The translations under genes were made by a program, and so were the position numbers. 32,000 nucleotides of DNA from Candidatus Saccharimonadota bacterium. GTDB taxonomy: Bacteria > Patescibacteriota > Patescibacteriia > 2-12-FULL-60-25. The stretch lies in the NCBI GenBank assembly GCA_963718585.1, contig OY970357.1:180001-212000 (forward strand). Direction: 5' to 3'. This document shows, one piece after another, positions 4,132-32,000 of the stretch (its first letter is position 1; every line of letters starts with the position of its first letter). The notes beneath the pieces are model-generated. The model did no database searches, was not told the DNA's origin, and was given only the letters and a program-made list of their open reading frames with translations.

Positions 4132-4140
4132 TGGTATACT
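4132..4140 (+). promoter_or_regulatory. extended -10 promoter box TGGTATACT for the T4SS-like operon
   Basis: TGGTATACT (TGn + TATACT) in the divergent intergenic region. The hexamer ends 9 nt before the ATG at 4150, implying a leaderless or near-leaderless transcript. Confidence 0.6.
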
Positions 4141-4149
4141 TCTCATTAG

Positions 4150-7137
4150 ATGAAGGACCGCCTCTTCGCATCGTTCTTGGCATTTCGCGAGAAGGCCTCT
4201 TTTTGGCGCGAGCATATCCGAATGCGTGTGGATCGTTCGCCAAGCTGGACGCGGATCGGGTTGATTATCGCGACCGTTGGATTAGGTATTTCTTCTGGAG
4301 CAGAAGTCGTCCATGCGCAGGCGGCGGCTGCGGTGGTAGGTGCCGCGGCCAGTGCGATCCCGGGCGGTACCGTCTTCGCGGGATTGGTGTCCGCCATCCC
4401 TTCGGTCGGCAGTCTGATCACAAACGGACCGGCATCCATCGCCGTCGGCATCGTCTCGGTCATCCTCAACACGCTGCTCTACGTCGTCATCCAGCTCTTG
4501 CTCAAGCTGAACACGGGACTGACCTACATCCTGGTCCACGCGGCAGCGTACAACTATTTCGTGAATGCGGGCGTCGTCGTGACGGGGTGGACCCTGGTGC
4601 GCGACATCTGCAACATGTTCTTCATCGTGGTCCTGCTGATCATCGCGTTCTCCACGATCATCGGGTATCAGGAATTCCACTACAAGCGGTATCTGCCGAA
4701 GTTGCTCCTCATGGCCGTGCTGATCAATTTCTCGCGGACGCTGATCGGGCTGCTCATCGACTTCTCGCAGGTCATCACGCTGACGTTCGTCAACGGATTC
4801 CAGAACGCGGCATTCGGCAATTTCGCGAGCGCCTTCCAGCTCACGAATCTGTTGAATACGTCGAAGGACGTCTCGCAGGCGATCGCGACCGGGAATTATC
4901 AAGGTGCGGCGAGTGATCTGGGTTCGACCATGATCACCATGCTGTATGCCATCAGCGTGCTGACCATTGCCGCGACCACGATCACGATCCTGGCGCTCTA
5001 TTTCATCGTCCGCATCATCTTCCTCTGGATCCTGTTGATCCTCTCGCCGATCGCGTTCCTCATGACGGCCCTGCCCGGCAAGATGCAAAAGGCTGTTGCG
5101 CCTGCGAGTCAGGATTTTTGGAACAAATTATCCGCGTGGTTGACCGGCGGGCCCATCGTCGCGTTCTTTCTCTGGTTAGCCCTTGCGACCGTGCAAAAAG
5201 GGACGAATGATTTCGCCACGATCGTTCCGGATTCCCCGGAAGCGAACATCACGGCGAACGCGGCTTTCAGTGAGGCGAGTACGCCGACCAATATGTCGCT
5301 CTTCATCGTGTCCGTCGCCTTCATGCTCATCGGCGTGAATACGGCGGTCAGCGTTTCGCAGAAGGCGGCGCCGCAGCTTGGCGGCATTGCGGCGCGGATC
5401 AAGTCCGAAGGCGGACCGGCCGGCTATGTCGGCCGTCGTGCCGCGCGTGTGACCGGTCGTGCCGCGCGCGCCGGCGGACGGGCGAGTTTGGCGTTGGCCA
5501 GACCGTACGTCGGACAGGCTGCAGGTCAGCTTGGCTCACGCGTTCAATCTGCGGCGCCAGGATTGGCGCGGATCCCAGGGATCGGTGCGCCGCTCGCCCG
5601 CGGAGCTGCCCGTCTCGGTGGTCGCGGGATCGGGTTCGAGCGGGGTCTGCAAGCGGAAGCAGCAAAGGGATTGGGCAAAGAGACAGAATTCATGCCGCCA
5701 GAGACCGCTCTCGCGTATATGCAATCGCTTAAGCAGCGGAATCTGCCTCCGGATCAGGCGCATGCGGTCGATCGGAAGATGGCGGAGATGGCGACCAAGG
5801 GCGGGCAAAAGGCGTATATCGATCAAGCGAAAGCCGGGCTTCAGGGCCGAGGGCTCTCCGGTGATCAGCTCAATGCGGTCGCCGACGCCCAGGCTGAGGA
5901 TCGGATGCGTTCTATCATCGCCGCAGACAGCTCTAATGCCAAAGCATCGAACGATTCGAAGCGTTCTGGAGAGATCGACGAAGCGTATAAGAAGGATCCG
6001 TCCAAATACAATGACATCAAAGACATCCTCAAGTCCGTCAACGAAAATCCGGATAGTACGCGGAAGCATGATGCCTATAAGGATATGGCAGTGGTCGCAG
6101 CCGAACTCAACAAACGCGGATTCGCGGATGCGGAGTCCGGCTTGACCAAGCCGGCGAATGAGATCCTGGAAGATGACGACTTCAAGAAGATGCTCACGGG
6201 TGCACGGGGCGAATACATACGCGCAGCCATGACCGATTTCGGGACGGCGGAAGGCAATGGCCGACTGCGTCAGATCCTCGCGGCCGGGACCGAGGCGGGG
6301 TCAAAGGATGCAGGGACCGTGTCCGCCGCCAATGCTCAGCGCTACCGCATGTCCAAATCCGCAGACGGGAAGCAAATGGTCTTTGCAAATGCCGCAGGTC
6401 AGTTCGGAGGCTTTGACATGAAAGAGGTGAAGGCCGGGAGTCAGCGGGTCCGGAGCGTCCCCCAGTTGGTCGGACAGGTCAGTGATGGGGCGTTGCGTGG
6501 ACGCGCGGAACGGGCGTCGCATTCCCTTGGCGTGGATACGCCGTCACGTATCCGATCGTTCCAGCAGCCGCTCAATGAACGTCAGGCGAACGCCATGGTC
6601 AATGTCGCTCAGGCCTACAGTAATCCGCCGGCGACGACGAACGCCGCGGCGATGTCAGACTTCGCGCATGCACAGGGTGAGGCATTGGCAAGCGGTCTAC
6701 CGACCTCGGTCGCCGCGAATTATGATGATGCGACGAATACCTATCGGGATGATCAGAGTCGGTCCGCACATCTGGAAAATCTGGATTCAGCGATGGCCAA
6801 TGTCGATTCGGATGACCCGGATATTCAAAGCGCCTCCATCAGCATGGTCGCGAACACGAATGCGGATCTGTTGAAGAACGGAGGGCAGATGCGGGATGTG
6901 GTCGTGGACGCCTTGAATCGGAATGCGGACAAGGTCAGGAAACTTTTCTCCAATGCCACGAAGGAACAGGGGAAGAAGATGCAGTCGATGATGAAAGAGC
7001 TTTCCAAACAGGCAGAGGCAGTGGTCGACCGCGGCGGTCCGACGAATACAGGCGAAGAACATCTTGTGGAACTCCGTACGAAGCTCGGTGGAAAGGCCAT
7101 GCGGAACCTCGGCGGCGATTCTAACAAGAAAGCCTAG
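4150..7137 (+). CDS. VirB6/TrbL-like polytopic membrane protein with a long hydrophilic C-terminal extension (T4SS-like operon, gene 1)
   Basis: 995-aa ORF. Signal-like segment RIGLIIATVGLGISSGAEVVHAQ. Multiple long hydrophobic helices follow (e.g. MFFIVVLLIIAFSTIIG, LLLMAVLINFSRTLIGLLIDF, IFLWILLILSPIAFLM, IVAFFLWLALATV), an arrangement typical of VirB6/TrbL proteins. After about aa 415 the protein is entirely hydrophilic. Alternative start: ATG at 4222. Family assignment is by architecture and operon context, not by a search. Confidence 0.6.
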   Translation: MKDRLFASFLAFREKASFWREHIRMRVDRSPSWTRIGLIIATVGLGISSGAEVVHAQAAAAVVGAAASAIPGGTVFAGLVSAIPSVGSLITNGPASIAVGIVSVILNTLLYVVIQLLLKLNTGLTYILVHAAAYNYFVNAGVVVTGWTLVRDICNMFFIVVLLIIAFSTIIGYQEFHYKRYLPKLLLMAVLINFSRTLIGLLIDFSQVITLTFVNGFQNAAFGNFASAFQLTNLLNTSKDVSQAIATGNYQGAASDLGSTMITMLYAISVLTIAATTITILALYFIVRIIFLWILLILSPIAFLMTALPGKMQKAVAPASQDFWNKLSAWLTGGPIVAFFLWLALATVQKGTNDFATIVPDSPEANITANAAFSEASTPTNMSLFIVSVAFMLIGVNTAVSVSQKAAPQLGGIAARIKSEGGPAGYVGRRAARVTGRAARAGGRASLALARPYVGQAAGQLGSRVQSAAPGLARIPGIGAPLARGAARLGGRGIGFERGLQAEAAKGLGKETEFMPPETALAYMQSLKQRNLPPDQAHAVDRKMAEMATKGGQKAYIDQAKAGLQGRGLSGDQLNAVADAQAEDRMRSIIAADSSNAKASNDSKRSGEIDEAYKKDPSKYNDIKDILKSVNENPDSTRKHDAYKDMAVVAAELNKRGFADAESGLTKPANEILEDDDFKKMLTGARGEYIRAAMTDFGTAEGNGRLRQILAAGTEAGSKDAGTVSAANAQRYRMSKSADGKQMVFANAAGQFGGFDMKEVKAGSQRVRSVPQLVGQVSDGALRGRAERASHSLGVDTPSRIRSFQQPLNERQANAMVNVAQAYSNPPATTNAAAMSDFAHAQGEALASGLPTSVAANYDDATNTYRDDQSRSAHLENLDSAMANVDSDDPDIQSASISMVANTNADLLKNGGQMRDVVVDALNRNADKVRKLFSNATKEQGKKMQSMMKELSKQAEAVVDRGGPTNTGEEHLVELRTKLGGKAMRNLGGDSNKKA

Positions 7138-7140
7138 CCT

Positions 7141-8931
7141 ATGCCGACGAAACGGCAGTCATTCGGAGACCTGTTCGACATGCCGGATGGACTCCGGAAA
7201 TTCGTCTTATCCCAGGCATTCGAGGACGCGGACACGAACCTGCAGAAGACGTATCAGCTTACCCCGGAACAGACGACGGCGATGGGAGATGCGGTCATGG
7301 CCGCGATCTATGGACAGGATCTCGCGAGTACCATCGACACGATCAAGCAGGTCGTCGTTCCCGCCGCGCTGCCGGAAGAAAAATGGAAAACGTTCCTTGC
7401 CGATATGGTCAAACTCGAGCTGTGGCCGATCCGGGAGTTGTTCGGGTCCGAATTGACCGATGTGTTGAATCAGCATCAGATCGGGACCGGCGGTTGGCCG
7501 ACGGAGCGCGTTCTCCTCAAGCCTTTGTCGTATAGTGGCGCGGCGACCGAGACCGCATCCATGGCCGGATTCACCCTCATGGGTCCGCAGATGCGTGAAC
7601 GGTTGCGCGATCTGATCGTCAGTAAATCCAAAGGCGTTCGGACCGATGCGCAAGTCCGCGATGTCCTCACGCGTTCGGGCGATTTCGGCGGGCTTGGCCT
7701 GGATGGAGCCGGGGCCGACAAAACGCTTGCGGTCATGAACAATATCCTGTCGAGCGTGAAGGTCATGTCCGAGGATGAATATTCCTCCTGGTTGGCCGAA
7801 TCGGCGAAACCAAAGGCCGAGGTCCCCGCAGAAGAGGGGGCGGAACTGACGGAAGAAGACCAGGAGATCGCCCAGATCAAAGCGAAGATGCCGAAAGCGT
7901 CAAAAGCACCGGAGACCGTGCTCGAGCAGGCGATCGATAAGACGTTCGATCAGATCGGATATGACGTTGCAGATAATTACCTCTCCAATCGGTTGCGTCA
8001 CATCATCTCATCCCGATTCCGCGATGTGCGCACGTCGCTCGAGGTCAAACAGCTCCTCATGCGGGACTCCAAGGTCGGTGGCATGAGCTTGGATGAAGGG
8101 TTGGCCGACCGGCTCACGCATGAGATCGAGGATGCATACAAGACCTATCACGATGCGATATATAAGGAAGAGGAAGGGCGACTCGTGAAGCAAAAAGAAG
8201 AGCAGAAGATCAAGATCGATGAACGGCGTGAACGCGAGGCAAAGGAGCATGCCAAATGGTATGAGGAGCGGATCCTGGCCAAGAAAGAGACGGAGTCGAA
8301 GCAAAAAGAGTTGGCCGCGCAGATGAAGAGCACCTATCAGGCGTACATCGCGGGGCCGACGACGCCTCTCGCGGGCGCACACCCCTTGGAGGCGAAGGAA
8401 CAGCGCCGTGAGACAGAGCGATTCGGGACGATGGTCCCGGCCGCAGCCGCCGGCGCAACGGCCATTGCCGAGAAGGGGACGGCGCCAAGCACGGGCAAGG
8501 CCGCGCGACCGGAGGTGAAGGTCTCTGCGCCGACCGCGAAGCTCGCAGCCGAAGCCCCGATCGCCCTGAAACCCAAGATGCAGGACATTGCGCGCACGTC
8601 TCCCAAGCTCGTCGGTCCGGCTGAGGAGCTGCACAACATGACCCTGGCCACATTCCGGCGTCTGTCGAGCGATCCGGAGGAGGCGGCGACGAAGATCATG
8701 GAGAAGATCGATACGCTCGGACAGGAGTCGTTCGAAAAACGGTCTGCAGGGATCAAGGCTTGGCAGCAAAGTCCGTTACAGCGAGCCTATGTCTCGCTGG
8801 TAGGGGAGTCGTTCCGCTCCGGAAAGCCGGTGACCGAGATCGCGGAGCAGAAACGCACCGGGGGCGAGGATACACTGCTTCCGCCCGAGGTCGCGGCTAT
8901 CATTTCGCTCAATTCTAAGTTACACTATTGA
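7141..8931 (+). CDS. hypothetical soluble protein with a central K/E-rich coiled-coil-like segment (T4SS-like operon, gene 2)
   Basis: 596-aa ORF starting 3 nt after the gene 1 stop. No TM segment. Charged block KEEEGRLVKQKEEQKIKIDERREREAKEHAKWYEERILAKKETESKQKELAAQMK. No catalytic motif recognised. Confidence 0.7.
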   Translation: MPTKRQSFGDLFDMPDGLRKFVLSQAFEDADTNLQKTYQLTPEQTTAMGDAVMAAIYGQDLASTIDTIKQVVVPAALPEEKWKTFLADMVKLELWPIRELFGSELTDVLNQHQIGTGGWPTERVLLKPLSYSGAATETASMAGFTLMGPQMRERLRDLIVSKSKGVRTDAQVRDVLTRSGDFGGLGLDGAGADKTLAVMNNILSSVKVMSEDEYSSWLAESAKPKAEVPAEEGAELTEEDQEIAQIKAKMPKASKAPETVLEQAIDKTFDQIGYDVADNYLSNRLRHIISSRFRDVRTSLEVKQLLMRDSKVGGMSLDEGLADRLTHEIEDAYKTYHDAIYKEEEGRLVKQKEEQKIKIDERREREAKEHAKWYEERILAKKETESKQKELAAQMKSTYQAYIAGPTTPLAGAHPLEAKEQRRETERFGTMVPAAAAGATAIAEKGTAPSTGKAARPEVKVSAPTAKLAAEAPIALKPKMQDIARTSPKLVGPAEELHNMTLATFRRLSSDPEEAATKIMEKIDTLGQESFEKRSAGIKAWQQSPLQRAYVSLVGESFRSGKPVTEIAEQKRTGGEDTLLPPEVAAIISLNSKLHY

Positions 8932-9031
8932 TGAAAGAATCTGGAATCGAGAATCTCGGATTTAGCAGGGGAACGGATCCGACCGCGCCCCTCCTAGCTT
9001 CCAGATCCTCACTTCCAGCTTCCAGCCCAAC

Positions 9032-9466
9032 ATGCCCGAAAAATTCATCGTTCCCCAATTCATCGATAAAGAGGACCAGATCCTGGGGCCGATCACGGTT
9101 CGGCAGTTTTTGATCATGCTCGTTTCGGCATTTCTCATCTTCATCTTCTATAAGCTCCTCGCATTTCCGTATTTCATCGCTTCAGCCATCCTGATCGCTG
9201 CGATCGGCGGGACGTTCGGCTTCATGAAGATCAATGGCCAGCCGTTCCACGTCTTTTTCATCAACGCCCTCCAGACCCTCACGCGTCCGGCGCTCCGGGT
9301 GTGGGACAAGACCTATAACGATGCGGAGATCCGCGCGTTCCTCGCGGTCGCACCCAGTGCTCCGGTGAAGGTCACGCCGCACAAGGAGCATCCGCCGTCG
9401 AGCCGTCTCCGCGATCTGTCACTCGTGGTGAATACGGGCGGCGTATACAAGCCGGAGGAAGAGTAG
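9032..9466 (+). CDS. PrgI-family / VirB3-like small membrane protein (T4SS-like operon, gene 3)
   Basis: 144 aa. The N-terminus MPEKFIVPQFIDKEDQILGPITVRQFLIML, followed by two TM helices, matches the PrgI-family pattern (VP.FID.E.KI.GP.T.RQF). Lies just upstream of VirB4, as in Gram-positive T4SS loci. Confidence 0.7.
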   Translation: MPEKFIVPQFIDKEDQILGPITVRQFLIMLVSAFLIFIFYKLLAFPYFIASAILIAAIGGTFGFMKINGQPFHVFFINALQTLTRPALRVWDKTYNDAEIRAFLAVAPSAPVKVTPHKEHPPSSRLRDLSLVVNTGGVYKPEEE

Positions 9467-9467
9467 T

Positions 9468-10148
9468 ATGCAAAGCAAGAAACTCGCAGGATCCAAACCG
9501 GGCGTTCCGTCTCAGCGATATCTCGATATCGCGGAGATCAAGGAAGACGTCGTGGTGATGAAGGACGGCACCATCCGTGCGGTCTTGCTCGTGTCGAGTA
9601 TCAACTTTGCGCTCAAGTCCGTGGATGAGCAGAATGCCATCGTCCAGGCGTACATGCAGTTCCTGAACTCGCTCGATTTCCCGATCCAGGTGGTCGTCCA
9701 ATCGCGGCGGATGAACATCGACGATTATCTGCGACGGCTGAGCGCGTCAGAAAAGACGCAGTCGAACGATCTTCTGCGTCGGCAGATCGCGGATTATCGC
9801 GAATACATCCGTCAACTCGTCGAACTCGGGGACATCATGCAGAAGAAGTTCTTCATCACCGTGCCGCTCGATCCGTCCACGGATAAGCAGAAGGGGTTCT
9901 TCGGGCGGCTGTCCGCGATCCTCTCGCCTGCCGCGACGATCAAATTGTCGGAAGATAAGTTCAAGAGCAATAAGCAGTCGCTCATGTTGCGGGTGAACTC
10001 GATCATCGGCGGGCTTCAGTCCATGTCGCTCAACGCCGCGATGCTCGATACGCAGAGCCTCATCGAGCTGTATTACACGGTCTACAACCCGGAACTGTTC
10101 GAAAACGAACGGATGGTCCCGACCGAGAAACTTCAAGTCGAAGGCTGA
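9468..10148 (+). CDS. hypothetical protein resembling a stand-alone VirB4 N-terminal domain (T4SS-like operon, gene 4)
   Basis: 226 aa, 1-nt gap after gene 3. No P-loop. By hand alignment it parallels the pre-ATPase region of the downstream VirB4 (see finding). Coding status is strong; function is tentative. Confidence 0.45.
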   Translation: MQSKKLAGSKPGVPSQRYLDIAEIKEDVVVMKDGTIRAVLLVSSINFALKSVDEQNAIVQAYMQFLNSLDFPIQVVVQSRRMNIDDYLRRLSASEKTQSNDLLRRQIADYREYIRQLVELGDIMQKKFFITVPLDPSTDKQKGFFGRLSAILSPAATIKLSEDKFKSNKQSLMLRVNSIIGGLQSMSLNAAMLDTQSLIELYYTVYNPELFENERMVPTEKLQVEG

Positions 10149-10151
10149 CCT

Positions 10152-12170
10152 ATGGCGATCAAGATCAAAGAGGAAAAAGGATTCGACGCTTCCGCCCTCA
10201 CCGCGGGAGGTATCGGATTGAAAAAGGGCCCCTCCAAGGCCGAGCAAAAGAAGAAGCACGACACCGAACGCGTCGCGTTGGAAGAGGAACGGGTCTATCG
10301 AAAGGGTGTCACGTCCATCAAAGACCTCATTTCGCCGAGCTCGATGAAGGTCGATCCGGGGTTCGTCCGGCTCGGTGACGTGTGGGTGCGTACGCTCTTC
10401 ATCATCACGTATCCGCGCTACGTCACGGTCGGTTGGGCATCGCCGATCATCAACCTGAACGCCCAGATGGATATCGCGATGTTCTTCTATCCCATCAAGG
10501 CGGACGTCATCCTCAAACAGCTCAAGAAGAAGGTCGGTGTGCTCGAGGCGCAGATCACCTCGGATGCCGAAGCCGGGAAGCCGCGCGATCCGATCTCTGA
10601 GACGGCGTTGCGCGACATCGAGCAGCTGCGGGACGACCTGACGCAGGGGATCGAGCATTTTTTCCAGTTCGCCTTTTACTGCACGTTCTACTCCACCTCC
10701 CTCGAGGAGCTGGAGCAGTTGTCGAACACCGTCGAATCCACATTCGGCTCCATGTTGATCTATACGAAGCGTGCGTACTTCCAGGCGGAACAGGGTTTCA
10801 ACTCCACGCTGCCCGTCGGCAATGACGAACTCATGATCACGTTCAACATGAGCACGTCGCCGCTCGCGTCGTCCTTCCCGTTCACGTCTGCGGAACTCAC
10901 GTCAGACAACGGGATCTTGTACGGGATCAACCGTCATAACAATTCGCTCATCATCTTCGACCGTTTCTCGCTCCAGAACGCCAACGCGGTCGTGTTCGCC
11001 ACCTCTGGTGCCGGGAAATCATATTTCGTGAAGCTCGAGATCCTGCGGTCGCTCATGCTTGGCGTCGATGTCATCGTCATCGATCCGGAAATGGAGTACA
11101 AGCATCTTTCTGATGCCGTGGGCGGAACGTACATCAATATCTCGCTCGCTTCCGACGCCAAGATCAATCCGTTCGACCTTCCGCGGCCGTCCGGAGAAGC
11201 GACGTCCACCGAAGACATCATCCGATCCGCGGTCATCACGATCAAAGGGCTATTACGCCTCATGCTCGGCAAGCTCACGGTCGCGGAAGACTCCATCCTT
11301 GATCGCGCGCTCCTTGAGACGTATGCGAAAAAGGACATCGTGCCGGGTGCCGACCTGACGGCCATCGAGCCGCCGATCCTGCAGGATTTCCAGGACATCC
11401 TTGAAGGGATGGAAGGCACGGGCGATCTCGTCCTGCGTTTGAAGAAATACACCGAAGGGACGTTCTCCGGCCTGTTGAACTCGCCGACGACCGTGCGCAT
11501 GAACAATCAGCTCGTCATCTTCTCGGTCCGCGATCTGGAAGATGAGCTCCGGCCGATGGCGATCTATACGATCATAAACTACATCTGGAATGTCGTGCGT
11601 TCCGAGCGGAAGAAGCGCATCCTCGCCATCGATGAGGCATGGTGGCTCATGCAGAATGAGGACTCGGCGAAATTCGTGTTCGCACTCGTCAAACGCTGCC
11701 GTAAGTATTACCTCGGTATCACGACGATCACGCAGGATGTGAATGACTTTTTGACGTCTCCATACGGCCAAGCGATCGTGACCAACTCATCCATGCAACT
11801 GTTGCTGAAGCAGTCGCCGGCATCCATCGACCTCGTCGCGCGCGTCTTCCTCCTCACACAATCCGAGAAATACCTCTTGCTCGAGTCCGGACGCGGAGAA
11901 GGGATCTTCTTTGCCGGACAAAAACACGCCGCGATCCAGGTCGTGGCGTCGTACACGGAAGATCAGATCGTGACGACCGACCCGAATCAGCTCCTCAAGA
12001 TCGAACAGGCGAAGAAAGAGTTCATCCAAGCGCTTGGTGAAGGGAGCGGAGGCGGACAAGGCGGAGGAACGCCGGCCACGGCACCACAGCCGGCTCCGGA
12101 ACCGGCGCCAACCCCAGCACCAGCACCTGAAACGCCGATCTCGGCGGAGCCGCCAACACCTGCCGTATGA
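10152..12170 (+). CDS. virB4: VirB4/PrgJ-type T4SS ATPase
   Basis: 672 aa. Walker A VVFATSGAGKSYFVK. Walker B RILAIDEAWWLM (the DEAW motif typical of VirB4/TraC/CagE). QDVNDF and LLLKQ motifs downstream. Pro/Ala-rich C-terminal tail (PATAPQPAPEPAPTPAPAPETP). Confidence 0.9.
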   Translation: MAIKIKEEKGFDASALTAGGIGLKKGPSKAEQKKKHDTERVALEEERVYRKGVTSIKDLISPSSMKVDPGFVRLGDVWVRTLFIITYPRYVTVGWASPIINLNAQMDIAMFFYPIKADVILKQLKKKVGVLEAQITSDAEAGKPRDPISETALRDIEQLRDDLTQGIEHFFQFAFYCTFYSTSLEELEQLSNTVESTFGSMLIYTKRAYFQAEQGFNSTLPVGNDELMITFNMSTSPLASSFPFTSAELTSDNGILYGINRHNNSLIIFDRFSLQNANAVVFATSGAGKSYFVKLEILRSLMLGVDVIVIDPEMEYKHLSDAVGGTYINISLASDAKINPFDLPRPSGEATSTEDIIRSAVITIKGLLRLMLGKLTVAEDSILDRALLETYAKKDIVPGADLTAIEPPILQDFQDILEGMEGTGDLVLRLKKYTEGTFSGLLNSPTTVRMNNQLVIFSVRDLEDELRPMAIYTIINYIWNVVRSERKKRILAIDEAWWLMQNEDSAKFVFALVKRCRKYYLGITTITQDVNDFLTSPYGQAIVTNSSMQLLLKQSPASIDLVARVFLLTQSEKYLLLESGRGEGIFFAGQKHAAIQVVASYTEDQIVTTDPNQLLKIEQAKKEFIQALGEGSGGGQGGGTPATAPQPAPEPAPTPAPAPETPISAEPPTPAV

Positions 12171-12775
12171 CCCGTCGCAGCAAGATCCTCATCCTCATCA
12201 TCGTCGGGATCCTTCTCCTGTTATTGGGGTTGTACATCTTCTTCCGTCCATTCCTCGTCCAGCGCACCGGACCACCGGCACAGCCGCCGACACCTGCTGG
12301 CGGAACGCCATATGTGCCTTCCGCACCGGCACAGGGTCAGCCAACAGCCGGCGGAGCGACCACGACCCAGCCGGCACAAGCGGATGACCTGTTGGCTCTT
12401 GAGCATGCTGCAAAGGCAGCAGCTGGACGTGTTGGATCAGGTTCAAACGAGAACGGCTTCCTCGGTTATCAAGACGAGTATTACGATGCCACGCCTTCGT
12501 ATCGTGCGACCCTCCTGTCTGACATGGCGGCGATGCAGAAGCTACACCCGGCAACCGGGCCGTTGTACAGTATTTCCACCTTCGCCGCGTCAGCTTCGAG
12601 TAATGATACATATGGAGATCCGACTATCGTGATGCAGGTGCAGGCGCGGCAGACCGTGACTGCGGGAAATGCCGCACCGGTCACGACATCGAAGAAGGTC
12701 GACGTGACGTTCCAACGTCAGTCTGACGGCTCCTATCTGGTCGACGACATCCAGTGGTCTGACCTGCAGTTGTAG
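12167..12775 (+). CDS. bitopic membrane protein, possible VirB8/PrgL-like component (T4SS-like operon, gene 6)
   Basis: 202 aa. The ATG overlaps the VirB4 stop (ATGA). N-terminal TM ILILIIVGILLLLLGLYIFF, then a P/A/G/Q-rich linker, then a ~120-aa globular C-terminus ending VDVTFQRQSDGSYLVDDIQW (beta-rich, NTF2-like feel). The VirB8-like call rests on position and topology only. Confidence 0.4.
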   Translation: MTRRSKILILIIVGILLLLLGLYIFFRPFLVQRTGPPAQPPTPAGGTPYVPSAPAQGQPTAGGATTTQPAQADDLLALEHAAKAAAGRVGSGSNENGFLGYQDEYYDATPSYRATLLSDMAAMQKLHPATGPLYSISTFAASASSNDTYGDPTIVMQVQARQTVTAGNAAPVTTSKKVDVTFQRQSDGSYLVDDIQWSDLQL

Positions 12776-12802
12776 AGGAGGGAAACAGCTAAAGAACGTG
12801 TC

Positions 12803-12824
12803 ATGTCGAGCGAAGTCGAGACAT
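12803..12824 (+). repeat. short hairpin repeat, copy 1 (ATGTC-GAGCGAAGTCGA-GACAT)
   Basis: 5-bp stem ATGTC/GACAT around a GAGCGAAGTCGA loop, 28 nt after the operon stop. The core is related to copies at 16921, 17246 and 29977. Confidence 0.5.
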
Positions 12825-12991
12825 CTTCGAATTGAACATACTTTGATACTCTCGGTAGAGGTCCTCATGAGGAAGATCCTCACGGTCGTTCCACTTCCCT
12901 CAGGATGACGCTTTTTAAGTGAATTACGTTTTTTTCTCGTTTCATCATCCACGTATTGACGACGACGCCTTTTTCATGGCAGCGGTGGTAT

Positions 12992-13705
12992 ATGGCACAT
13001 CGCGCCGTTGACCTCCTTCTCGAGACCGCGTTCCCGACGCGTTGTGTCTCCTGCCATGTCGCTGGCGCGTGGTGGTGCGGTGATTGTCAGCACGCGGTCG
13101 AGCCATTCCGCTGGAATGTGAAACAGGAAAAACTCGCTTCTGCAAAGAAAGGGGAAGCGTCAGCTCTAAGTGGTTCCGTCGCGGACGGGCTCGATGGCCT
13201 GATAGCGACCGGTTTTTATCATGATCCGCGCCTGCGCGCCGTCATCCACGCGCTCAAGTTCAACGGCGCGACCTGCGTGCTCCCAGAGATCCGCGCATAC
13301 CTCAAACAATGGGCGACAGAACGCCTTGAACCGTGGCCATGGGCCGGTGCGACGGGCCTCGCGATCCAACCGCTCATCACGAGCGTACGGCGCGATCGAT
13401 CCCGCGGATTCGATCAAGCGCGGCTCCTTGCCGGCCTGGTCCATGAGACGATCGTGCCCTGGGCCACATCCGTCGACCTCCTTCAGCGGAAAGGAGCACA
13501 CACGCCTCAATCGTCGCTCGATCCCGGTCCGCTCCGTCAGGCGAACGTCCTGGGATCCTACGACGCGATCGGTCCCGTCGCGCCGACCATTCTCCTCGTG
13601 GATGACGTGGTCACGACCGGCGCGACCATGCGCGAAGCCGCCCGCACCCTTAAAGCCACTGGCGCGGAACGCGTCTTCGGCTTTGCCATAGCCGTGGGGA
13701 AATGA
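12992..13705 (+). CDS. comFC: ComF-family competence protein (ComFC, phosphoribosyltransferase-like)
   Basis: N-terminal Cys pairs (CVSCHV...WWCGDCQ) and a C-terminal PRTase motif ILLVDDVVTTGATMREAARTLKATGA. The ORF-track start at 12956 is a TTG; the ATG at 12992 (MAHRAVDLLLETAFPTRCVSC) looks more likely. Confidence 0.85.
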   Translation: MAHRAVDLLLETAFPTRCVSCHVAGAWWCGDCQHAVEPFRWNVKQEKLASAKKGEASALSGSVADGLDGLIATGFYHDPRLRAVIHALKFNGATCVLPEIRAYLKQWATERLEPWPWAGATGLAIQPLITSVRRDRSRGFDQARLLAGLVHETIVPWATSVDLLQRKGAHTPQSSLDPGPLRQANVLGSYDAIGPVAPTILLVDDVVTTGATMREAARTLKATGAERVFGFAIAVGK

Positions 13706-14882: not shown

Positions 14883-15647
14883 TTATTTTACGATTCTTTT
14901 TAAATTGCGCACCAACTTATCCTTCCCTCCAGACACTCTTGTTAAAAACGGGAGACCGATAAATTCATAACGTCCGTCAATTTTACCAAGGCTAAAATTG
15001 TATTTGTCTTCAAAATGAATCACTTTTTTAAATTCTGGCTTTACTAGATAAGGTTTAAGCGTTGGGAAGCCTACAATGAAAATAGTTTTTTTTGGATTAA
15101 TATGACGGATGATCTTTAAAAGAATTTCGAAATAAATTTCACGATATTTCGTTAGATCATTGATTCGTAGGCCTGCTGCATCGGATGAGTGATATGGTAT
15201 GAATTCAAGCGCGATAACATTTTTCTGAAACCACTCCCAATCAATTTTCTCCTTTATTCCATCGTAGCGTTTGAGAAAGCCTTTGATATTTGCGTAATAA
15301 GGGATCAGTCCAGGTTTGCTGTAATGAAAGTCCGAAAAGAGATGACAGTAACCGTTAAAAAGACCCCGTCTTTTAAGATAGGCATTTTCTAAACTGTTGT
15401 TACTGTTATAGCCTGGATTAATGCCTATAAAAATGTACTTGTCCCTTGGGTTCGTGATATCTCCAATAAAATAAGTGGGGTAGACAGGATAACGTGGGAA
15501 GATCCCAAAATCAGTATTTATGTCTTCAAATGTTGAACCCTTTAAAAAATTTTTATTAGTAAAGCGAAGCTCTTCAAGCTGTAGCAGTTTTTTTATGAAA
15601 TCTATGCCCTTAAGCTTTGCGATCTTTTTATATTGAGCAGAGTTCAT
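14883..15647 (-). CDS. hypothetical protein (orphan, low-GC island)
   Basis: 254-aa intact ORF rich in K/N/I/F/Y. Contains YIFIGINPGYNS and later ALEFIPYHSS. These are faintly reminiscent of UDG-superfamily motifs A/B (GINPG ... HPS-like), but the spacing is atypical. Confidence 0.7.
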   Translation of the reverse strand: MNSAQYKKIAKLKGIDFIKKLLQLEELRFTNKNFLKGSTFEDINTDFGIFPRYPVYPTYFIGDITNPRDKYIFIGINPGYNSNNSLENAYLKRRGLFNGYCHLFSDFHYSKPGLIPYYANIKGFLKRYDGIKEKIDWEWFQKNVIALEFIPYHSSDAAGLRINDLTKYREIYFEILLKIIRHINPKKTIFIVGFPTLKPYLVKPEFKKVIHFEDKYNFSLGKIDGRYEFIGLPFLTRVSGGKDKLVRNLKRIVK

Positions 15648-15673
15648 ATTAGGTAGCTTCTAGTGTCTTAAGC

Positions 15674-16816
15674 TCAACGATCCGTACTTCCACTCGGAAT
15701 TTTTTCAAGATCACTGTCCGTAATTCCGAGACCGAGGTAGCGCATGATCTGATAGGCAGCGTCGCCATCTTTCATATAAATACGACGGCACTTGGATGGA
15801 TCGACATACCACGCCTCACCGTGTTGTTGAATCTGTAACAGGATCTTACCTTTGGTCTGCTTTGCGAGGCTATTTGAAGCACAGACACTTGTAGCGTCTT
15901 TCATACTTTGTGTATCAGCGACGATCGGGATCTTTGCGAGGTCTGTATCTGTGATGCCGAGTCCGAATGATCGCATCATGCTGTACGCAACCGCTCCATC
16001 ACGCATGTAATAACGTGTCTGGTCTGCTGGATTGATGTACCACGCTTCGCCGTGATCTTGGACTTGAAGAGGATTTGTCCAGAAAGTCTGTTGATGAGCG
16101 TTGAATCTTTTTTAAGAGGATCAAAGCTACCATGAATTGGAAAAGCAGCTGAATTAAATGTTACCTCGTTTGAAGTAACATTTGTTTGGTTTGGGATTGT
16201 TGATACCGTTGGCCAGCGTATTTGATAGCCTGGGATATGCTTCTGGATCGACATTGCAGTTAAGCGAGATGTTTTGGTAAAGATAATCAAACGAGTGGGT
16301 ATTTAGGACCCCCAAAGCAAGTATCTCTTCTCGTGTGTCATCAACTGGGACGCCACAATATTTAATATTTTCATTTTCAATAAGTTGTTGGATTTGAGGA
16401 CCACTATAATCTTCACATGTACTTCCATTCCAAATTTCGGCGTTTAGGCATTGGCAAACATCGTTGTCTGCTATCCGCATACCCTTTTTACAGGTTGGGT
16501 CGAATTTAAGAGCCGTAACGAAATAGTTGTTCTGGACACAATCGCTGAAAGTAGCCTGATCGCCTGATAAGAGATTCCTACAATAAGAAAGCGCTATGTC
16601 TGTAAGTTGTTGATCTAGAGTAAGGTCGCAGGAGTTTAGAATTGAAACTGAACTATCTGGCCACCCATCATTGCAAATAACCGAAAGATCATTCAAATCA
16701 AATGTACTGCAGTTTACCCCTTGGTGAGATGAGCATGCTCCCGATGTGGCATGGGCGATCGGAATATAAAAGAACAGCGCTATTAAGCTAAGCGAGGCGT
16801 ATTTCAAGCGGTTCAT
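15674..16816 (-). pseudogene. secreted Cys-rich protein with two C-terminal GEAWY-type repeats, broken by two 1-nt frameshifts
   Basis: Three overlapping ORFs in different frames (16154-16843, 15976-16290, 15674-16006) join into one protein. Signal peptide MNRLKYASLSLIALFFYIPIAHA. Cys-rich region GACSSHQGVNCS...VICNDGWPDSSV. Two repeats ...Q(V/I)Q(D/Q)HGEAWY(I/V)(N/D)P..(T/C)R(Y/R)(Y/I)M(R/K)DG.AAY.(M/I)MR..GLGITD(T/S)DL.KIP. Frame breaks lie near 16165-16185 (CCCAAACCAAACAAA tract) and 16070-16080. The ATG at 16816 is preferred over the TTG at 16843. Confidence 0.7.
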
Positions 16817-16832
16817 AGGGCTATCTAGACCC

Positions 16833-16838
16833 AGTATA
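16833..16838 (-). promoter_or_regulatory. -10 box TATACT (GGGTATACT) for the Cys-rich gene
   Basis: Minus strand reads TTGGGTATACT, then 18 nt, then the ATG at 16816. Same hexamer as the TGGTATACT promoters. Confidence 0.45.
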
Positions 16839-16867
16839 CCCAATATCTACAGACGACGCATAAAGTC

Positions 16868-17014: not shown

Positions 17015-17104
17015 GGAGAGGTACCCAAGAGGCTGAAGGGGGGAGATTGCTAATCTCCTAGGGGGTAAAACCGCGCGAGGGTTCGAATCCCTCCCTCTCC
17101 GCCA
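17015..17104 (+). tRNA. tRNA-Ser (anticodon GCT), CCA encoded
   Basis: Acceptor GGAGAGG/CCTCTCC. Anticodon arm GGAGA-TTGCTAA-TCTCC. Long variable arm (class II). T-arm GAGGG-TTCGAAT-CCCTC. Discriminator G plus CCA. Confidence 0.95.
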
Positions 17105-17971: not shown

Positions 17972-18841
17972 TCAGATCGATGTCACTGCGATCGTGAGGA
18001 AGAGGATCATCATCACGATGAGAGACGTGTTGAACATCTGATGCGCCCAGGCGATGTTCCGTTTTGACGTGTCCGGAATCAGGAGACCGCGGATCGCGAG
18101 GATGAGCCACAGGAGGGAAAGACCGATCGCGATCGTGAAATAGAATATCCCGGTGTAGCCGAAGACTGTGAGCGACGGTGCGAGGAGGGTGAACGCGATG
18201 ATGTAGAGGAGGATCTGGATCTTCGTCGCCTTGAGGCCGTGTCCGACCGGGAGTGCTGGGACGCGCGCATCCGCGTAGTCATTCCTCCGCCGGATCGCGA
18301 TCGCGTAGAAATGCGGCATCTGCCACGCGATCATGATCACGAAGAGGAGGAAGGCCGCGAAGTCGATCCGTCCGCTTGCGGCGGCATAGCCCGCGACCGG
18401 CGGCGTGGCGCCGGCGACGCTGCCAATGACCGTGGACCACGACGTCTCGCGCTTGGACCAGAGGCTGTACGGGAAGAGGTAGAAGAAAAAGCCGACCGCG
18501 GCGACCGCGGCGGCTGTGAGGTCCACGAAGAGCGCAAGCGTCGCGAATCCGGTGAATCCGAGGACAAAGCCTGTCATCGTCCCGCCGGCAGGCGAGATGC
18601 GTCCGCTGGCGATCGCCCGATCCTTCGTCCGTTCCATCTTCGTATCGATGTCCCGATCGATGACGTTGTTGAATGCGCACGCGGACGCGATCACGAGCGC
18701 GATGCCGACGAACGTGAGGAGAAAGAGATGCGCGTCGATGCGGCCACGCGACGCGAGGAAGAAGCCGCCGATGAGCGTCACCGCGTTCCCCGCGATGATG
18801 CCGGGCTTCGTGATCTCGACGTAGTCCCAGAGCGACGCCAT
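17972..18841 (-). CDS. cyoE: protoheme IX farnesyltransferase (heme O synthase)
   Basis: 289 aa, UbiA family: ITKPGIIAGNAVTLIGGFFLAS, NNVIDRDIDTKMERTKDRAIASGRIS. Last gene of the cyo block. Confidence 0.9.
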   Translation of the reverse strand: MASLWDYVEITKPGIIAGNAVTLIGGFFLASRGRIDAHLFLLTFVGIALVIASACAFNNVIDRDIDTKMERTKDRAIASGRISPAGGTMTGFVLGFTGFATLALFVDLTAAAVAAVGFFFYLFPYSLWSKRETSWSTVIGSVAGATPPVAGYAAASGRIDFAAFLLFVIMIAWQMPHFYAIAIRRRNDYADARVPALPVGHGLKATKIQILLYIIAFTLLAPSLTVFGYTGIFYFTIAIGLSLLWLILAIRGLLIPDTSKRNIAWAHQMFNTSLIVMMILFLTIAVTSI

Positions 18842-18842
18842 A

Positions 18843-19211
18843 TCAGAATCCTTGTTGTCCGTTGATGTATTGCGTCATGGCATCCGGTGACGCCATCATG
18901 TTGTAGTTCAGGTGCGCCATGATCCAGACGGAGCCGCCGACGATGATGAGGACCGAGCCCATGGTGGCGATGAATGTCCCGATCTTCCACCGTCGGCCAG
19001 CGCCGAAGCCAAGGTCGATGAAGCAGAGCATCTGCACCCCGAGCTGGATCACGGCAAATGTGAGGATCAGAGCGCCCAACGCCCACCCCAAGAGCCAGTG
19101 CTGGATCACGGCCAGATACGCGGCGAAGGTGAGCGCGATCGCGAGGACGTAGCCGATGAGGACGTTTTTGAGCGTCAGACTGGAGGTGCGTTCCATAGGT
19201 TTAGCGGACAT
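18843..19211 (-). CDS. cyoD: cytochrome o/aa3-type quinol oxidase subunit IV
   Basis: 122 aa with 3 TM helices, positioned between subunit III and cyoE. The N-terminus LKNVLIGYVLAIALTFAAYLAV resembles CyoD/QoxD. Confidence 0.8.
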   Translation of the reverse strand: MSAKPMERTSSLTLKNVLIGYVLAIALTFAAYLAVIQHWLLGWALGALILTFAVIQLGVQMLCFIDLGFGAGRRWKIGTFIATMGSVLIIVGGSVWIMAHLNYNMMASPDAMTQYINGQQGF

Positions 19212-19773
19212 GGCCGAGGAGATACACGGCTGTGAAGATGAAGATCCAGACGAGGTCGAGGAAGTGCCAGAAGAGGCTGAAGCGCTGGAGACGTGAGACC
19301 ACGAACCGGCTAAGTCCGCGGATCCGGATCTGCATCATACCCACGAACATCCAGAGGAGACCGAGGGTGATATGGAGACCGTGCGCACCCACGAGTGTGA
19401 AGAAGGAGGAGAGGAACGCGTTGCGCTGGGGGCCGTTGCCGGTGGTGATGAGATGCGCGAATTCTGAAAGCTCGAGTCCGAGAAAGGCCGCGCCCAAAAG
19501 GAATGTCACCGCAAGCCACGCGACCGCGTGATCCGCGCGCTTTTTTCCGATCGCGAGCATGGCGAGACTGCTCGTGAGACTGCTCGTGAGGAGGGCGAGC
19601 GTCTCCCAGAGCGCGTTGGTGAGGTTGAGGAGATCGCCGGCGCCCGGGCCGCCGAACGTCGCGCCACGTAGGACGGCGTACGATGCGAAGAGCACCGCGA
19701 ACATGAGCAGGTCGGTCAGGAGGAAGACCCAGAATCCGAAGGCTAATTTTTCCGATCGGGCATCCGTGGTCAT
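19201..19773 (-). CDS. cyoC: quinol oxidase subunit III
   Basis: 190 aa. FGFWVFLLTDLLMFAVLFASYAVL and the C-terminal FWHFLDLVWIFIFTAVY are typical of CyoC/COX3. Confidence 0.9.
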   Translation of the reverse strand: MTTDARSEKLAFGFWVFLLTDLLMFAVLFASYAVLRGATFGGPGAGDLLNLTNALWETLALLTSSLTSSLAMLAIGKKRADHAVAWLAVTFLLGAAFLGLELSEFAHLITTGNGPQRNAFLSSFFTLVGAHGLHITLGLLWMFVGMMQIRIRGLSRFVVSRLQRFSLFWHFLDLVWIFIFTAVYLLGHVR

Positions 19774-21737
19774 ACACGTTTCGCTTCAAGCCGCTTCACC
19801 TCTGCGGCCGTGAGGATATATTCCGTGTCATCGTCGAACGAGCGGGCGATGAGGCATGCGACGATGCCCCCGAAGCCAAGCACCGCAAGCCAGAGGATGT
19901 GCCAGACGAGAGCGAATCCGAGGAGGAGTGCGAAGCCCGCGATGTACATGCCGAGCGGGGTGTTCCGGGCCATGACGATGTCTTCGTATCTTGTCGGTGC
20001 CTTGTCCAGGCCCTTTTTCTTCATCTCCCAGAATGCGTCGCGGCACGTGACGCGCGGCGTGACGGCAAAGCTGTAGAACGGCGGAGGGGAGGGGACGGAC
20101 CATTCGAGCGTGCGGCCGTTCCACGGATCACCGGTCGTATCGCGATGCTGCTTCCGTTCCTTCACGCTCACGACGATCTGGATGATCTGTGTGATCGCAC
20201 CGAGCGTCAGCACGCAGATACCTACTGCGGCCGTGATGAAGAGCGGCTGATATCCGGACGAGGCGGCGTAGTGGTCGAGGCGCCGATTCGCCCCCATGGC
20301 GCCGAGGATGTAGAGCGGGCCGAAGGAGAGGAAAAAGCCGAAAAGCCAGAGCCAGAACGCGCGCTTGCCCCAGCGTTCATTCAACGTGAAGCCGAAGACC
20401 TTGGGGAACCAGTACGTGATCCCCGCGAAGATACCGAAGAGCGCGACGCCAACGATCATGGTGTGGAAGTGCGCGACGAGGAAAAGCGTGTTGTGGAGCT
20501 GGTAGTCCGCGGTCGGAGAGGCGAGGAGCGCGCCCGCCATGCCACCGAACGTGAAGAGTGCGGCGAATCCCAGGAACCAGTACATGGGCGTGAAGAAGCG
20601 GATGCGTCCCCGCCACATGGTCATGATCCAGTTGAAGACCTGGACGCCGGCGGGGATCGCGATGAGCATGGTCGAGAGGCCGAAGATGAGGTTCACGTCC
20701 GAGCCTGCGCCCATGGTGAAGAAGTGGTGGAGCCATACGAGCGTCGCGATGAAGGTGACCCCGATCGCGGCGAGGACCATGGAGACATAGCCGAAGACGC
20801 GTTTTTGCGAGAATGTTGCAACCACCTCGGAGAAGATGCCGAAGGAGGGGAGCACGAGGATATATACCTCCGGATGGCCCCACATCCAGATGAGGTTCAC
20901 ATACATCATGGGGTTGCCGCCTGCGCCGGTGGTGAAGAAATGCATACCGAAGAACCGGTCGAGCCAGATGAGGAGCGTTGTGACCGTGAGCACGGGGAAC
21001 GCGGCCGTGATGAGTGCCGAGGCGCAGAGCGATGTCCAGGTGAATAAGGGCATCCGCATGAGCTTCATGCCTGGCGCGCGCATCTTGAGGATCGTGACGA
21101 AAAAGTTCAGTCCCGTGAGTAGGCTGCCGAGGCCGGAGATCTGTAGGCTCCAGACCCAGTAATCCACGCCAGGACCCGGGCTATATGCGAGCTCGGCGAG
21201 CGGCGGGAGCGAGAGCCAGCCTGTGGCCGCGAACGATCCGCCGAAGACGAAAAAGAGATTGATGAGGATCGCGCCCGCGACATAGAGCCAGAAGCCGACG
21301 GAGTTGAGGAACGGGAAGGCGAGGTCCCGTGCGCCGATCTGGAGCGGGACGATGAGGTTCATGAGTCCCACGATGAGGCCCATGGTGACGAAAAAGACCA
21401 TGACATCCCCATGGGCAGTGAAGATCTGCTGGAAGTGTGCAGACGTGAGGTAACCGTGCGATGCGCCGGACGACATCGCTTGTTGGAACCAGATCATGGC
21501 CGCGTCGATGAGCCCGCGGAAGAACATGAGCCCAGCGACGATGATGTACATGACCCCGATCTTCTTCGGATCAGTCGCGGTCAACCACTCTTTCCAAAGC
21601 CGTCTCCACTTCCTCTTCGCCGTGAGGAACCACGCCGCAGCCGCGAGCATCGCGATGATCGATGCCGTGCCCCCGACCGTGTACCAATGGTGAGGCAGGG
21701 CATCAAGTGTCAGGTTGCCGAAGAGGAAATGCCACAT
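19770..21737 (-). CDS. cyoB: heme-copper quinol oxidase subunit I
   Basis: 655 aa. HCO signatures WGHPEVYILVLP, WLHHFFTMGAG, VAHFHTMIV. C-terminal GDPWNGRTLEWSVPSPPPFYSF as in CyoB. Confidence 0.95.
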   Translation of the reverse strand: MWHFLFGNLTLDALPHHWYTVGGTASIIAMLAAAAWFLTAKRKWRRLWKEWLTATDPKKIGVMYIIVAGLMFFRGLIDAAMIWFQQAMSSGASHGYLTSAHFQQIFTAHGDVMVFFVTMGLIVGLMNLIVPLQIGARDLAFPFLNSVGFWLYVAGAILINLFFVFGGSFAATGWLSLPPLAELAYSPGPGVDYWVWSLQISGLGSLLTGLNFFVTILKMRAPGMKLMRMPLFTWTSLCASALITAAFPVLTVTTLLIWLDRFFGMHFFTTGAGGNPMMYVNLIWMWGHPEVYILVLPSFGIFSEVVATFSQKRVFGYVSMVLAAIGVTFIATLVWLHHFFTMGAGSDVNLIFGLSTMLIAIPAGVQVFNWIMTMWRGRIRFFTPMYWFLGFAALFTFGGMAGALLASPTADYQLHNTLFLVAHFHTMIVGVALFGIFAGITYWFPKVFGFTLNERWGKRAFWLWLFGFFLSFGPLYILGAMGANRRLDHYAASSGYQPLFITAAVGICVLTLGAITQIIQIVVSVKERKQHRDTTGDPWNGRTLEWSVPSPPPFYSFAVTPRVTCRDAFWEMKKKGLDKAPTRYEDIVMARNTPLGMYIAGFALLLGFALVWHILWLAVLGFGGIVACLIARSFDDDTEYILTAAEVKRLEAKRV

Positions 21738-21738
21738 A

Positions 21739-22662: not shown

Positions 22663-22716
22663 TTCCCTCTGATTTTCCCACAGGCCGGGCGGAACGTCTA
22701 GCGGGTAGATCGATGA

Positions 22717-22740
22717 CAAAAGACCCGCCGAAGCGGGTCT
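22717..22740 (-). terminator. rho-independent terminator after the ABC exporter genes (AGACCCGC-ttcg-GCGGGTCT + TTTT on minus strand)
   Basis: 8-bp GC-rich stem with a 4-nt loop followed by TTTT on the minus strand. It starts 4 nt after the stop at 22744 and separates the ABC operon from the cyo operon. Confidence 0.75.
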
Positions 22741-31754: not shown

Positions 31755-32000
31755 ATGCTGAATTGGTCGGACCCCGTCTCCTTCATCCACGGGCTCTCGC
31801 CGCAGGCGCGCAAGGCCCTGAAGACGCTCGAGCTTGAGACCGTAGGGGCGCTTTTGGATACCTTTCCGCGCCGATACGACGACTACTCCCATGTGACACC
31901 GATCGCGCAGGCGCCGACCGGCGAACCGGTGACCGTGCGCGCGACCGTGCAGGAACTCAAGGCGGCGCCGACATTCCGTCGTCGCATCGCCATCATCAAA
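31755..32000 (+). CDS. recG: ATP-dependent DNA helicase RecG, N-terminal part (runs off the window)
   Basis: Own translation: MLNWSDPVSFIHGLSPQARKALKTLELETVGALLDTFPRRYDDYSHVTPIAQAPTGEPVTVRATV… This matches the RecG N-terminus/wedge-domain pattern (G.. ….L..LGI.TV.DLL..FPRRYED… I..L..GE.VTV.G.V). Confidence 0.75.
   Translation, partial: MLNWSDPVSFIHGLSPQARKALKTLELETVGALLDTFPRRYDDYSHVTPIAQAPTGEPVTVRATVQELKAAPTFRRRIAIIK

Follow-up and report, generated by a model that had tools for sequence, protein, structure and literature searches.

The 32,000-nucleotide stretch of DNA considered here (the window; positions 180,001 to 212,000 of contig OY970357.1, assembly GCA_963718585.1, from a Candidatus Saccharimonadota bacterium) harbors an operon of six genes that very probably encodes a type IV secretion system (T4SS) of the Patescibacteria clade, chromosomal and vertically inherited, in the arrangement of the class ABY1 (Uhrbacteria and relatives), and not an integrative conjugative element (ICE). 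The synteny of the operon in 80 loci, together with a VirB4 ATPase whose identity among relatives exceeds that of Der and Pth, argues for an old, vertically inherited and constrained core machine. Because no relaxase, coupling protein or integrase accompanies the operon, it does not appear to be the conjugation apparatus of a mobile element. These same three observations bear out the original prediction, a note made from the DNA letters alone, which had called the locus a domesticated core machine rather than a conjugative element. The locus adds nothing new in kind. The Patescibacteria T4SS is one of a small number of machines whose essentiality for epibiotic growth has been demonstrated in this very large, mostly uncultured group. 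The operon and the gene that follows it are listed below; coordinates are positions within the window, and features are on the + strand unless stated otherwise.

4132-4140, +, extended -10 promoter-like box TGGTATACT, 9 nt before the ATG of ORF1 (sequence read, conservation in relatives)
4150-7137, +, ORF1, 995 aa, extended VirB6/TrbL-like polytopic membrane protein (Pfam matches of orthologues, hydropathy)
7141-8931, +, ORF2, 596 aa, soluble all-alpha protein of an uncharacterized Patescibacteria family (AlphaFold2 (AF2) model, position in relatives)
9032-9466, +, ORF3, 144 aa, PrgI/VirB3-like protein with two transmembrane (TM) segments (Pfam PrgI, hydropathy)
9468-10148, +, ORF4, 226 aa, TrsD/TraC-like protein, the VirB4 N-domain as a separate polypeptide (NCBIfam and Pfam matches)
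10152-12170, +, ORF5, 672 aa, VirB4-family ATPase without the N-domain (NCBIfam conju_CD1110, Pfam P-loop_TraG)
12167-12775, +, ORF6, 202 aa, VirB8/PrgL-like protein, bitopic; TM helix at the N-terminus, then Pro-rich linker and NTF2-like domain (AF2, Foldseek, profile)
12956-13705, +, comFC-like gene, ComF family (NCBIfam ComF/GntX, Pfam Pribosyltran)

A conserved chromosomal operon

The six open reading frames (ORFs) are separated, from ORF1 to ORF6, by 3, 100, 1, 3 and -4 nt, and the coordinates and gaps of the tightly packed same-strand genes first described are reproduced exactly. One genome per species was used to compare this arrangement among Uhrbacteria, Magasanikbacteria, Falkowbacteria and other Patescibacteria, giving 80 loci, all from ABY1-type metagenome-assembled genomes, in which VirB4 is 71-92% identical to that of the window. 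VirB4 homologues number more than 8000; the best 120 clusters are 83-92% identical and ~630-650 aa long, are found on contigs of up to 1.5 Mb, and, where named, are almost all from Patescibacteria or Candidatus Uhrbacteria, two carrying other labels. The order and strand of ORF1, ORF2, PrgI, TrsD, VirB4, the VirB8-like gene and comFC are kept in essentially all of the 80 loci that reach far enough. Genes beyond comFC vary among relatives, and upstream of the operon the order dprA-pth-der-LCP is found only in the closer ones. In three loci (L021, L023 and L069) the LCP-der-pth block has the opposite orientation to that in the window. As the T4SS block is unchanged there, this would place a rearrangement breakpoint on the promoter side of the operon.

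The proteins encoded by this conserved block have diverged to very different extents. In 18 genomes carrying all of the genes, the median identities to the window proteins are as follows.

VirB4, 83%
TrsD-like protein, 69%
PrgI, 58%
Der, 56%
LCP, 52%
Pth, 49%
ORF2, 37%
ORF1, 35%
ComFC, 34%
ORF6, 32%

The conservation of VirB4 fits the growth-essential role of the T4SS shown by transposon sequencing (Tn-seq) in Saccharibacteria.

A remnant or functional part of an ICE would be an alternative, as CD1110, the curated model closest to this VirB4, represents a family from clostridial conjugative transposons, and Gram-positive conjugation systems have the same PrgI, TrsD and VirB8 partners. This alternative is given very little credence. 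Pfam or NCBIfam searches of all long ORFs (≥170 aa) taken as genes in the window found no relaxase, coupling protein (T4CP), integrase, peptidoglycan hydrolase, adhesin or pilin, in agreement with the absences claimed at the outset, and no att-like repeats turned up, though no explicit search for them was made. Likewise, no VirB9 or VirB10 family was found in the window, a hydropathy screen (not pilin hidden Markov models) revealed no small two-TM pilin-like ORF near the operon, and no mobility genes lie within 10 kb on either side of the operon in two related loci (L082 and L083). The G+C content is 0.56-0.62 over positions 1-14 kb, the same for operon and flanks, and the lack of a compositional break that had been reported is thus upheld. 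The only low-G+C island (14.9-16.8 kb, by a tRNA-Ser gene) is apart from the operon and carries no T4SS genes. Moreover, chromosomal neighbors are alike in the 80 species, and VirB4 is better conserved than either Der or Pth. Synteny, composition and the lack of mobility genes in the window led to the rejection of an ICE or other conjugative element, and conjugation as the role of the machine is very unlikely.

The box TGGTATACT precedes the first gene, and 24 of 37 related loci have a TGnTAnn[A/C]T box at the corresponding site 5' of their first gene, as compared to 2.8% of random 90-nt windows. A scan for two-hexamer sigma-70 promoters did not flag TGGTATACT, and promoter-like matches in the region were no commoner than in shuffled sequence. 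The early proposal that a single promoter drives the operon nevertheless finds support in this conservation, which favors TGGTATACT as the putative operon promoter. Since the box lies only 9 nt from the ATG of ORF1, its spacing implies a leaderless or near-leaderless mRNA.

Identity of the secretion components

ORF5 matches the NCBIfam model conju_CD1110 (E=1.3e-104; 351 bits, cut-off 325) over positions 170-730 of the 752 in the profile, and Pfam P-loop_TraG (E=2.9e-27), so that the VirB4 ATPase initially named there is confirmed. The Walker A motif SGAGKS (aa 285-290, nt 11004-11021) and the Walker B motif ILAIDEAWWLM (aa 490-500, nt 11619-11651) were both found as quoted, as was MPEKFIVPQFIDKEDQILGPITVRQF in ORF3, and SGAGKS and DEAWW are invariant in the VirB4 alignment. 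The archaeal CedB model is matched only partially (E=1.2e-16, 60.5 bits against a cut-off of 700). The C-terminus of ORF5 (12040-12170) is a tail of ~40 residues rich in Gly, Pro, Ala and Thr, GGGQGGGTPATAPQPAPEPAPTPAPAPETPISAEPPTPAV. Most VirB4 relatives are ~632 aa long, versus 672 aa here, and are without this tail.

The missing N-domain of ORF5 is supplied by ORF4, an identity that had escaped the original prediction. ORF4 matches the N-terminal ~110 positions of the NCBIfam models VirB4_plasma (E 6.8e-9) and CD1110 (7.8e-7), the NCBIfam TrsD/TraD model (E 3.9e-5) and, in a precomputed Pfam assignment, PF26593 (TraC-like), and ORF4 and ORF5 jointly span the complete VirB4 model. Both are in the same frame and are parted only by TGA CCT (TGA CCT ATG, 10146-10154), which raises the question of whether the VirB4 gene is broken, as in a pseudogene, or whether the in-frame TGA at 10146-10148 is read through to give full-length VirB4. 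Either is extremely improbable. The TrsD-like and virB4 genes are separate in 78 of 78 related loci; they share a frame in 20 of these, about the one-third expected by chance, and their spacing ranges from 1 nt to several kb. The stop codon of the TrsD-like gene is TAA in 56 loci, and TGA is an ordinary stop codon in the window, terminating many other genes. Furthermore, a separate TrsD is the commonest VirB4 partner in Patescibacteria (PMC12102498). Recoding of the TGA was rejected in view of the random frame relation, the usual TAA stop and the use of TGA elsewhere in the window. Judged from these comparisons, the TGA lies in frame by coincidence, and VirB4 in its native form consists of two proteins. 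In two loci (L035:196-6911 and L036:1133-5989) an insertion of 4.9-6.7 kb lies between the TrsD-like gene and virB4; that of L036 holds four or five ORFs of 270-470 aa, and no Pfam family was found in the insert ORFs of L035 and L036.

Among the membrane components, ORF3 contains two hydrophobic segments within aa 27-64 and matches Pfam PrgI above threshold (E=1.3e-8, 35.7 bits, cut-off 27) and TcpE at E=0.004, affirming the PrgI/VirB3-like call. ORF6 has no direct family match in Pfam, NCBIfam or PADLOC, and a homologue search with its single sequence gives 2 matches only, but an ORF of ~200 aa stands at its position in nearly every locus whose contig extends that far. Compared to PDB sequences, a profile built from 42 such positional homologues matches PrgL best (7aed, E=0.006). 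In the AF2 model of ORF6 (mean predicted local distance difference test score, pLDDT, 84.6), a disordered Pro-rich linker connects a TM helix to a helix-plus-sheet domain. Its best Foldseek match is CagV (6iqt, E=2.9e-6, target TM-score 0.72); next come the VirB8 proteins of Agrobacterium and Brucella, TrwG of R388, DotI and PrgL. The VirB8/PrgL assignment, which had been proposed from the bitopic topology and position, is thereby a structural one at the level of the predicted fold.

With regard to the searches proposed at the outset, profiles recovered VirB4 and PrgI directly, PrgL for ORF6, and TrbL via orthologues of ORF1. ORF1 has ~9 hydrophobic segments within aa 36-396, as judged by hydropathy, followed by a C-terminal extension of ~600 aa that is hydrophilic and poorly conserved in the alignment of relatives. 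Because an Arg-rich stretch begins this extension after the last TM segment, a cytoplasmic location is suggested. Pfam TrbL is matched by 3 of 32 full-length ORF1 orthologues and by 4 of 10 N-terminal halves of orthologues (E 1.5e-5 to 5.6e-3, 17-25 bits against a cut-off of 25.9, profile positions 3-203 of 215), and one orthologue matches TrbL_4. The VirB6/TrbL-like call for the first gene is borne out by the matches among the ten halves.

ORF2, which was left without an identity at first, emerges as a fixed helical member of the operon that belongs to a large unannotated family. It occupies the same position, between the VirB6-like and PrgI genes, in 72 of the 80 related loci, and a relative of only 23% identity is found in the same place, before a PrgI-sized ORF and a TraC-like gene. 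The family counts 2321 cluster representatives (50% clustering) at E≤1e-3. ORF2 itself matched nothing in Pfam, NCBIfam, PADLOC or PDB sequences, and family profiles of ORF1 and ORF2 gave only coiled-coil noise against PDB sequences. The AF2 model of ORF2 is all-helical (pLDDT 86.7). One helix (319-403) is 85 residues long, and the model also shows a disordered linker and, at the C-terminus (493-593), a helical domain that is conserved. Foldseek comparison of this model to the PDB returned a best E of only 0.76, a comparison limited by the multi-domain nature of the model (predicted TM-score 0.44). An internal duplication (aa ~146-186 and ~283-323, repeat E=3e-9) carries an 'R..GGLGL....A' module; its reading as a helix-hairpin-helix was discarded as a visual likeness only, as no helix-hairpin-helix Pfam model was matched in 35 members.

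In six loci of Magasanikbacteria-like and other more distant relatives (L057, L059, L062 and L066 at ~6300-7700; L043 and L046 at ~5300-6800), an extra soluble ORF of 300-430 aa separates the VirB6-like gene from a shorter ORF2. Since the distant loci carry a separate ORF beside the shorter ORF2, the 596-aa ORF2 of Uhrbacteria may be a fusion. Another locus (L071:3116-7034) has an additional 482-aa ORF and putative metK-like and ahcY-like genes between the VirB6-like gene and ORF2.

Several points weigh against the assignment of the locus to a Patescibacteria-clade T4SS. Membership of the window VirB4 in this clade was inferred from similarity and not from a tree, and the similarity is consistent with it. 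ORF1 of the window itself has no Pfam, NCBIfam or PADLOC match, and its assignment as VirB6 holds only transitively, via sub-threshold matches of orthologues. VirD4-like homologues, far from virB4, are reported in most Patescibacteria genomes (PMC12102498), and one may likewise be encoded elsewhere in this genome. Finally, a VirB2-like pilin array and a peptidase/lysozyme are absent from the window, so that the machine may be incomplete or completed elsewhere in the genome.

Relation to published secretion systems

A 2025 review counts the Patescibacteria systems as a new T4SS group (PMC12857230). A survey of 3035 Patescibacteria genomes found VirB4 in 2417 of them, as a monophyletic clade that is nested in MPF-FATA (Quinonero-Coronel et al. 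2025, Microb Genom, PMC12102498). Most of the ultra-small Patescibacteria (the candidate phyla radiation, CPR) thus carry such a stripped-down system, and the initial annotation had already remarked that VirB4/VirB6 loci recur in them. The commonest partner, TrsD, is followed by PrgI/VirB3 and VirB6, and VirB8 is rarely detectable, mostly in ABY1. VirB2-like pilin arrays occur in many of the genomes and relaxases are almost absent (PMC12102498). In class ABY1, comF, recG and radA are found near the T4SS, "suggesting a functional coordination", whereas the T4SS lies near dnaA instead in other Patescibacteria classes (PMC12102498). In Southlakia epibionticum, epibiotic growth has been shown by Tn-seq to require the T4SS genes but not comEC, comF or dprA, and transformation is mediated by ComEC (Wang et al. 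2023, Cell, PMC10633639).

The kind of T4SS described here, including its comF/recG neighborhood in ABY1, is therefore already known (PMC12102498). What is added, in that it was not met in the available portions of PMC12102498 and PMC10633639, is the apparent coupling of comFC at the level of the operon, the conservation of VirB4 above that of neighboring housekeeping genes, the predicted VirB8 fold of the ~200-aa gene after virB4, and the large uncharacterized family of ORF2. Like the Patescibacteria-clade systems, including that of Southlakia, the locus is chromosomal, has separate genes for TrsD-like, PrgI/VirB3, VirB6 and (as in ABY1) VirB8 proteins, and has no relaxase nearby; like the published ABY1 loci, it has comF and recG in its vicinity. 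It differs from the Southlakia cluster in being without a VirB2-like pilin array or an adjacent peptidase/lysozyme, both of which are essential parts of that cluster, and it differs from published Patescibacteria T4SSs in its 596-aa helical ORF2, which was not found in the available portions of the two papers.

The MPF-FATA systems (Prg of pCF10, Trs of pGO1/pSK41 and CD1110 of CTn2) resemble the locus in the CD1110 match of VirB4, the presence of PrgI and a PrgL/VirB8 fold, and the lack of outer-membrane components. The TrsD-type split of the VirB4 N-domain is shared with pGO1. Unlike these conjugation systems, the locus is without a relaxase, a T4CP of the PcfC/TcpA type, a VirB1-type hydrolase (PrgK/TrsG) or an adhesin (PrgB), and it is vertically inherited and not carried by a mobile element. 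A further likeness is to Helicobacter pylori ComB and the archaeal Ced system (CedA/A1/A2/CedB), both of which have a minimal set of a VirB4-like ATPase and a polytopic protein, no relaxase, and a genetic or functional association with competence proteins. ComFC is needed downstream of ComB in H. pylori. ComB differs from the locus in its diderm VirB7/9/10 core, and the Ced system in that its CedB model was matched only weakly (60 bits versus a cut-off of 700).

By analogy with the VirB/Prg systems, a VirB4 hexamer would be docked on the membrane via PrgI/VirB3 and the TrsD-like N-domain, VirB6 would provide the membrane conduit, and VirB8 would form an extracytoplasmic collar through the wall. 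ATP hydrolysis could then drive assembly and/or the passage of macromolecules over a single membrane at a site of host-cell contact. The cytoplasmic extension of ORF1 and the soluble ORF2 protein could jointly form a platform.

Linkage to comFC and the possible substrate

The product of the gene downstream of the operon carries a CxxC-x8-CxxC zinc-finger motif and a phosphoribosyltransferase-type domain, in which VDDVVTTGAT can be read. It scores below the curated cut-offs of both TIGR00201 (E=1e-12, 48 bits against 234) and GntX (E=3e-13), and its features suggest a divergent member of the ComF family. This gene is downstream of the operon in 69 of the 80 loci, almost always directly after the VirB8-like gene. 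In the 65 loci in which the minimum gap between the two was measured, its median is 0 nt; it is 50 nt or less in 47 of them, and the genes overlap or abut in 33. The window is at the long end of this range, with a gap of 180 nt from ORF6 to the longest ORF (12956) or of 216 nt to the ATG at 12992. The distance of 217 nt given originally fits the latter start but not the former. The spacer itself (12776-12955) contains T-rich runs and is unusually long compared to the median of 0 nt in relatives; a simple terminator scan called none in it.

Linkage to the other competence genes is looser. The operon had been described as bracketed by natural-transformation genes, a statement that holds mainly for comFC, as dprA, encoded on the opposite strand, is near the operon only in close relatives, and recG, which starts at 31755, is 19 kb from the operon. 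In the 80 loci, dprA is linked in 12, all from Uhrbacteria-level relatives, at a distance of four genes, and recG is within 10 kb downstream in at least 8. Thus, the proposed synteny with competence genes stands for the operon and comFC (69/80) but not in general for dprA (12/80).

Because comFC is linked at the level of the operon, nucleic acid would be a serious candidate for the substrate in ABY1. The machine could be a nucleic-acid import device comparable to ComB and Ced, with VirB4 as the motor and incoming single strands passed to ComFC and then to DprA. Consistent with this idea, comFC keeps its place, with frequent overlap, even though ComFC has diverged to ~32-34% identity; dprA is four genes away in Uhrbacteria and recG nearby in at least eight loci; and the absence of a relaxase and T4CP argues against DNA export. 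In addition, the partial match of VirB4 to CedB, the "functional coordination" suggested by PMC12102498, and a 2026 preprint that ties VirB4 to macromolecule acquisition from hosts all point in the same direction. Nevertheless, import is somewhat unlikely. Saccharibacteria need their T4SS but can do without comEC, comF and dprA, and their transformation is ComEC-dependent (PMC10633639); in other Patescibacteria classes the T4SS lies near dnaA (PMC12102498). With 60 bits, the match to CedB falls far short of both its cut-off of 700 and the match to conjugative VirB4 (351 bits), comFC in the window itself is 180-216 nt from the operon, and adjacency by itself is no evidence of interaction.

As the Southlakia system is essential independently of com genes and lacks a relaxase and T4CP, its role was proposed by Wang et al. 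to be the export of proteins or something else (PMC10633639). The machine may serve host contact and the delivery of effectors or the assembly of a pilus, as proposed for Saccharibacteria, with comFC a mere passenger; this is a tenable possibility that falls a little short of an even chance. Tubular structures between parasite and host have been reported, and the extreme conservation of VirB4 would be in line with such a role. However, neither the window nor the conserved block has a gene for a VirB2-like pilin, an adhesin or a candidate effector, and the persistence of comFC across the sampled ABY1 loci is hard to square with a passenger.

A more specific proposal is that the ABY1 T4SS and ComFC form one pathway, in which the VirB4 translocon stands in for a ComFA-type motor. 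Nucleic acid from the host or the environment would be imported by it and go first to ComFC, then to DprA and RecG, to be recombined or salvaged for nucleotides, ORF2 and the tail of the VirB6-like protein serving as a docking platform. In this detailed form the proposal is unlikely. The comparison of 80 genomes, with its highly constant ATPase, a VirB8-fold gene placed alike in almost all loci that reach it, a fixed ORF2 family and a comFC packed into the operon in almost all ABY1 loci sampled, sharpens the question of the substrate, and yields a testable hypothesis in which nucleic-acid handling is coupled to ComFC.

Other features of the window

Upstream of the operon, the minus strand carries the N-terminal part of dprA and, after it, pth, der and a gene of the LCP family.

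1-447, -, dprA, N-terminal 149 aa, running off the window (Pfam DNA_processg_A E=4e-21; NCBIfam dprA E=4.5e-22); the full-length protein is 355 aa in one relative (L081)

The interval between comFC and recG contains genes for a cupin and an ICMT-like methyltransferase, a low-G+C islet, a tRNA-Ser gene, a cyoABCDE operon, two ABC exporters and ApbE. The islet (14883-16843), with a G+C content of 0.39-0.44 versus ~0.6 elsewhere, contains three minus-strand ORFs without a Pfam family and adjoins the tRNA-Ser gene (17015-17104). One ORF of 254 aa bears a weak likeness to the anti-phage DNA glycosylase Brig1 (NCBIfam E=8.6e-5, far under the cut-off), and neither a PADLOC match nor an integrase was found in the islet. 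Its composition and location suggest that it was probably acquired horizontally at the tRNA gene.

Patescibacteria are usually described as lacking a respiratory chain; the window contains a complete quinol oxidase operon downstream of the islet.

17972-22719, -, complete haem-copper quinol oxidase operon of the cyoE-cyoD-cyoC-cyoB-cyoA type (UbiA, COX4_pro, COX3, COX1, COX2)

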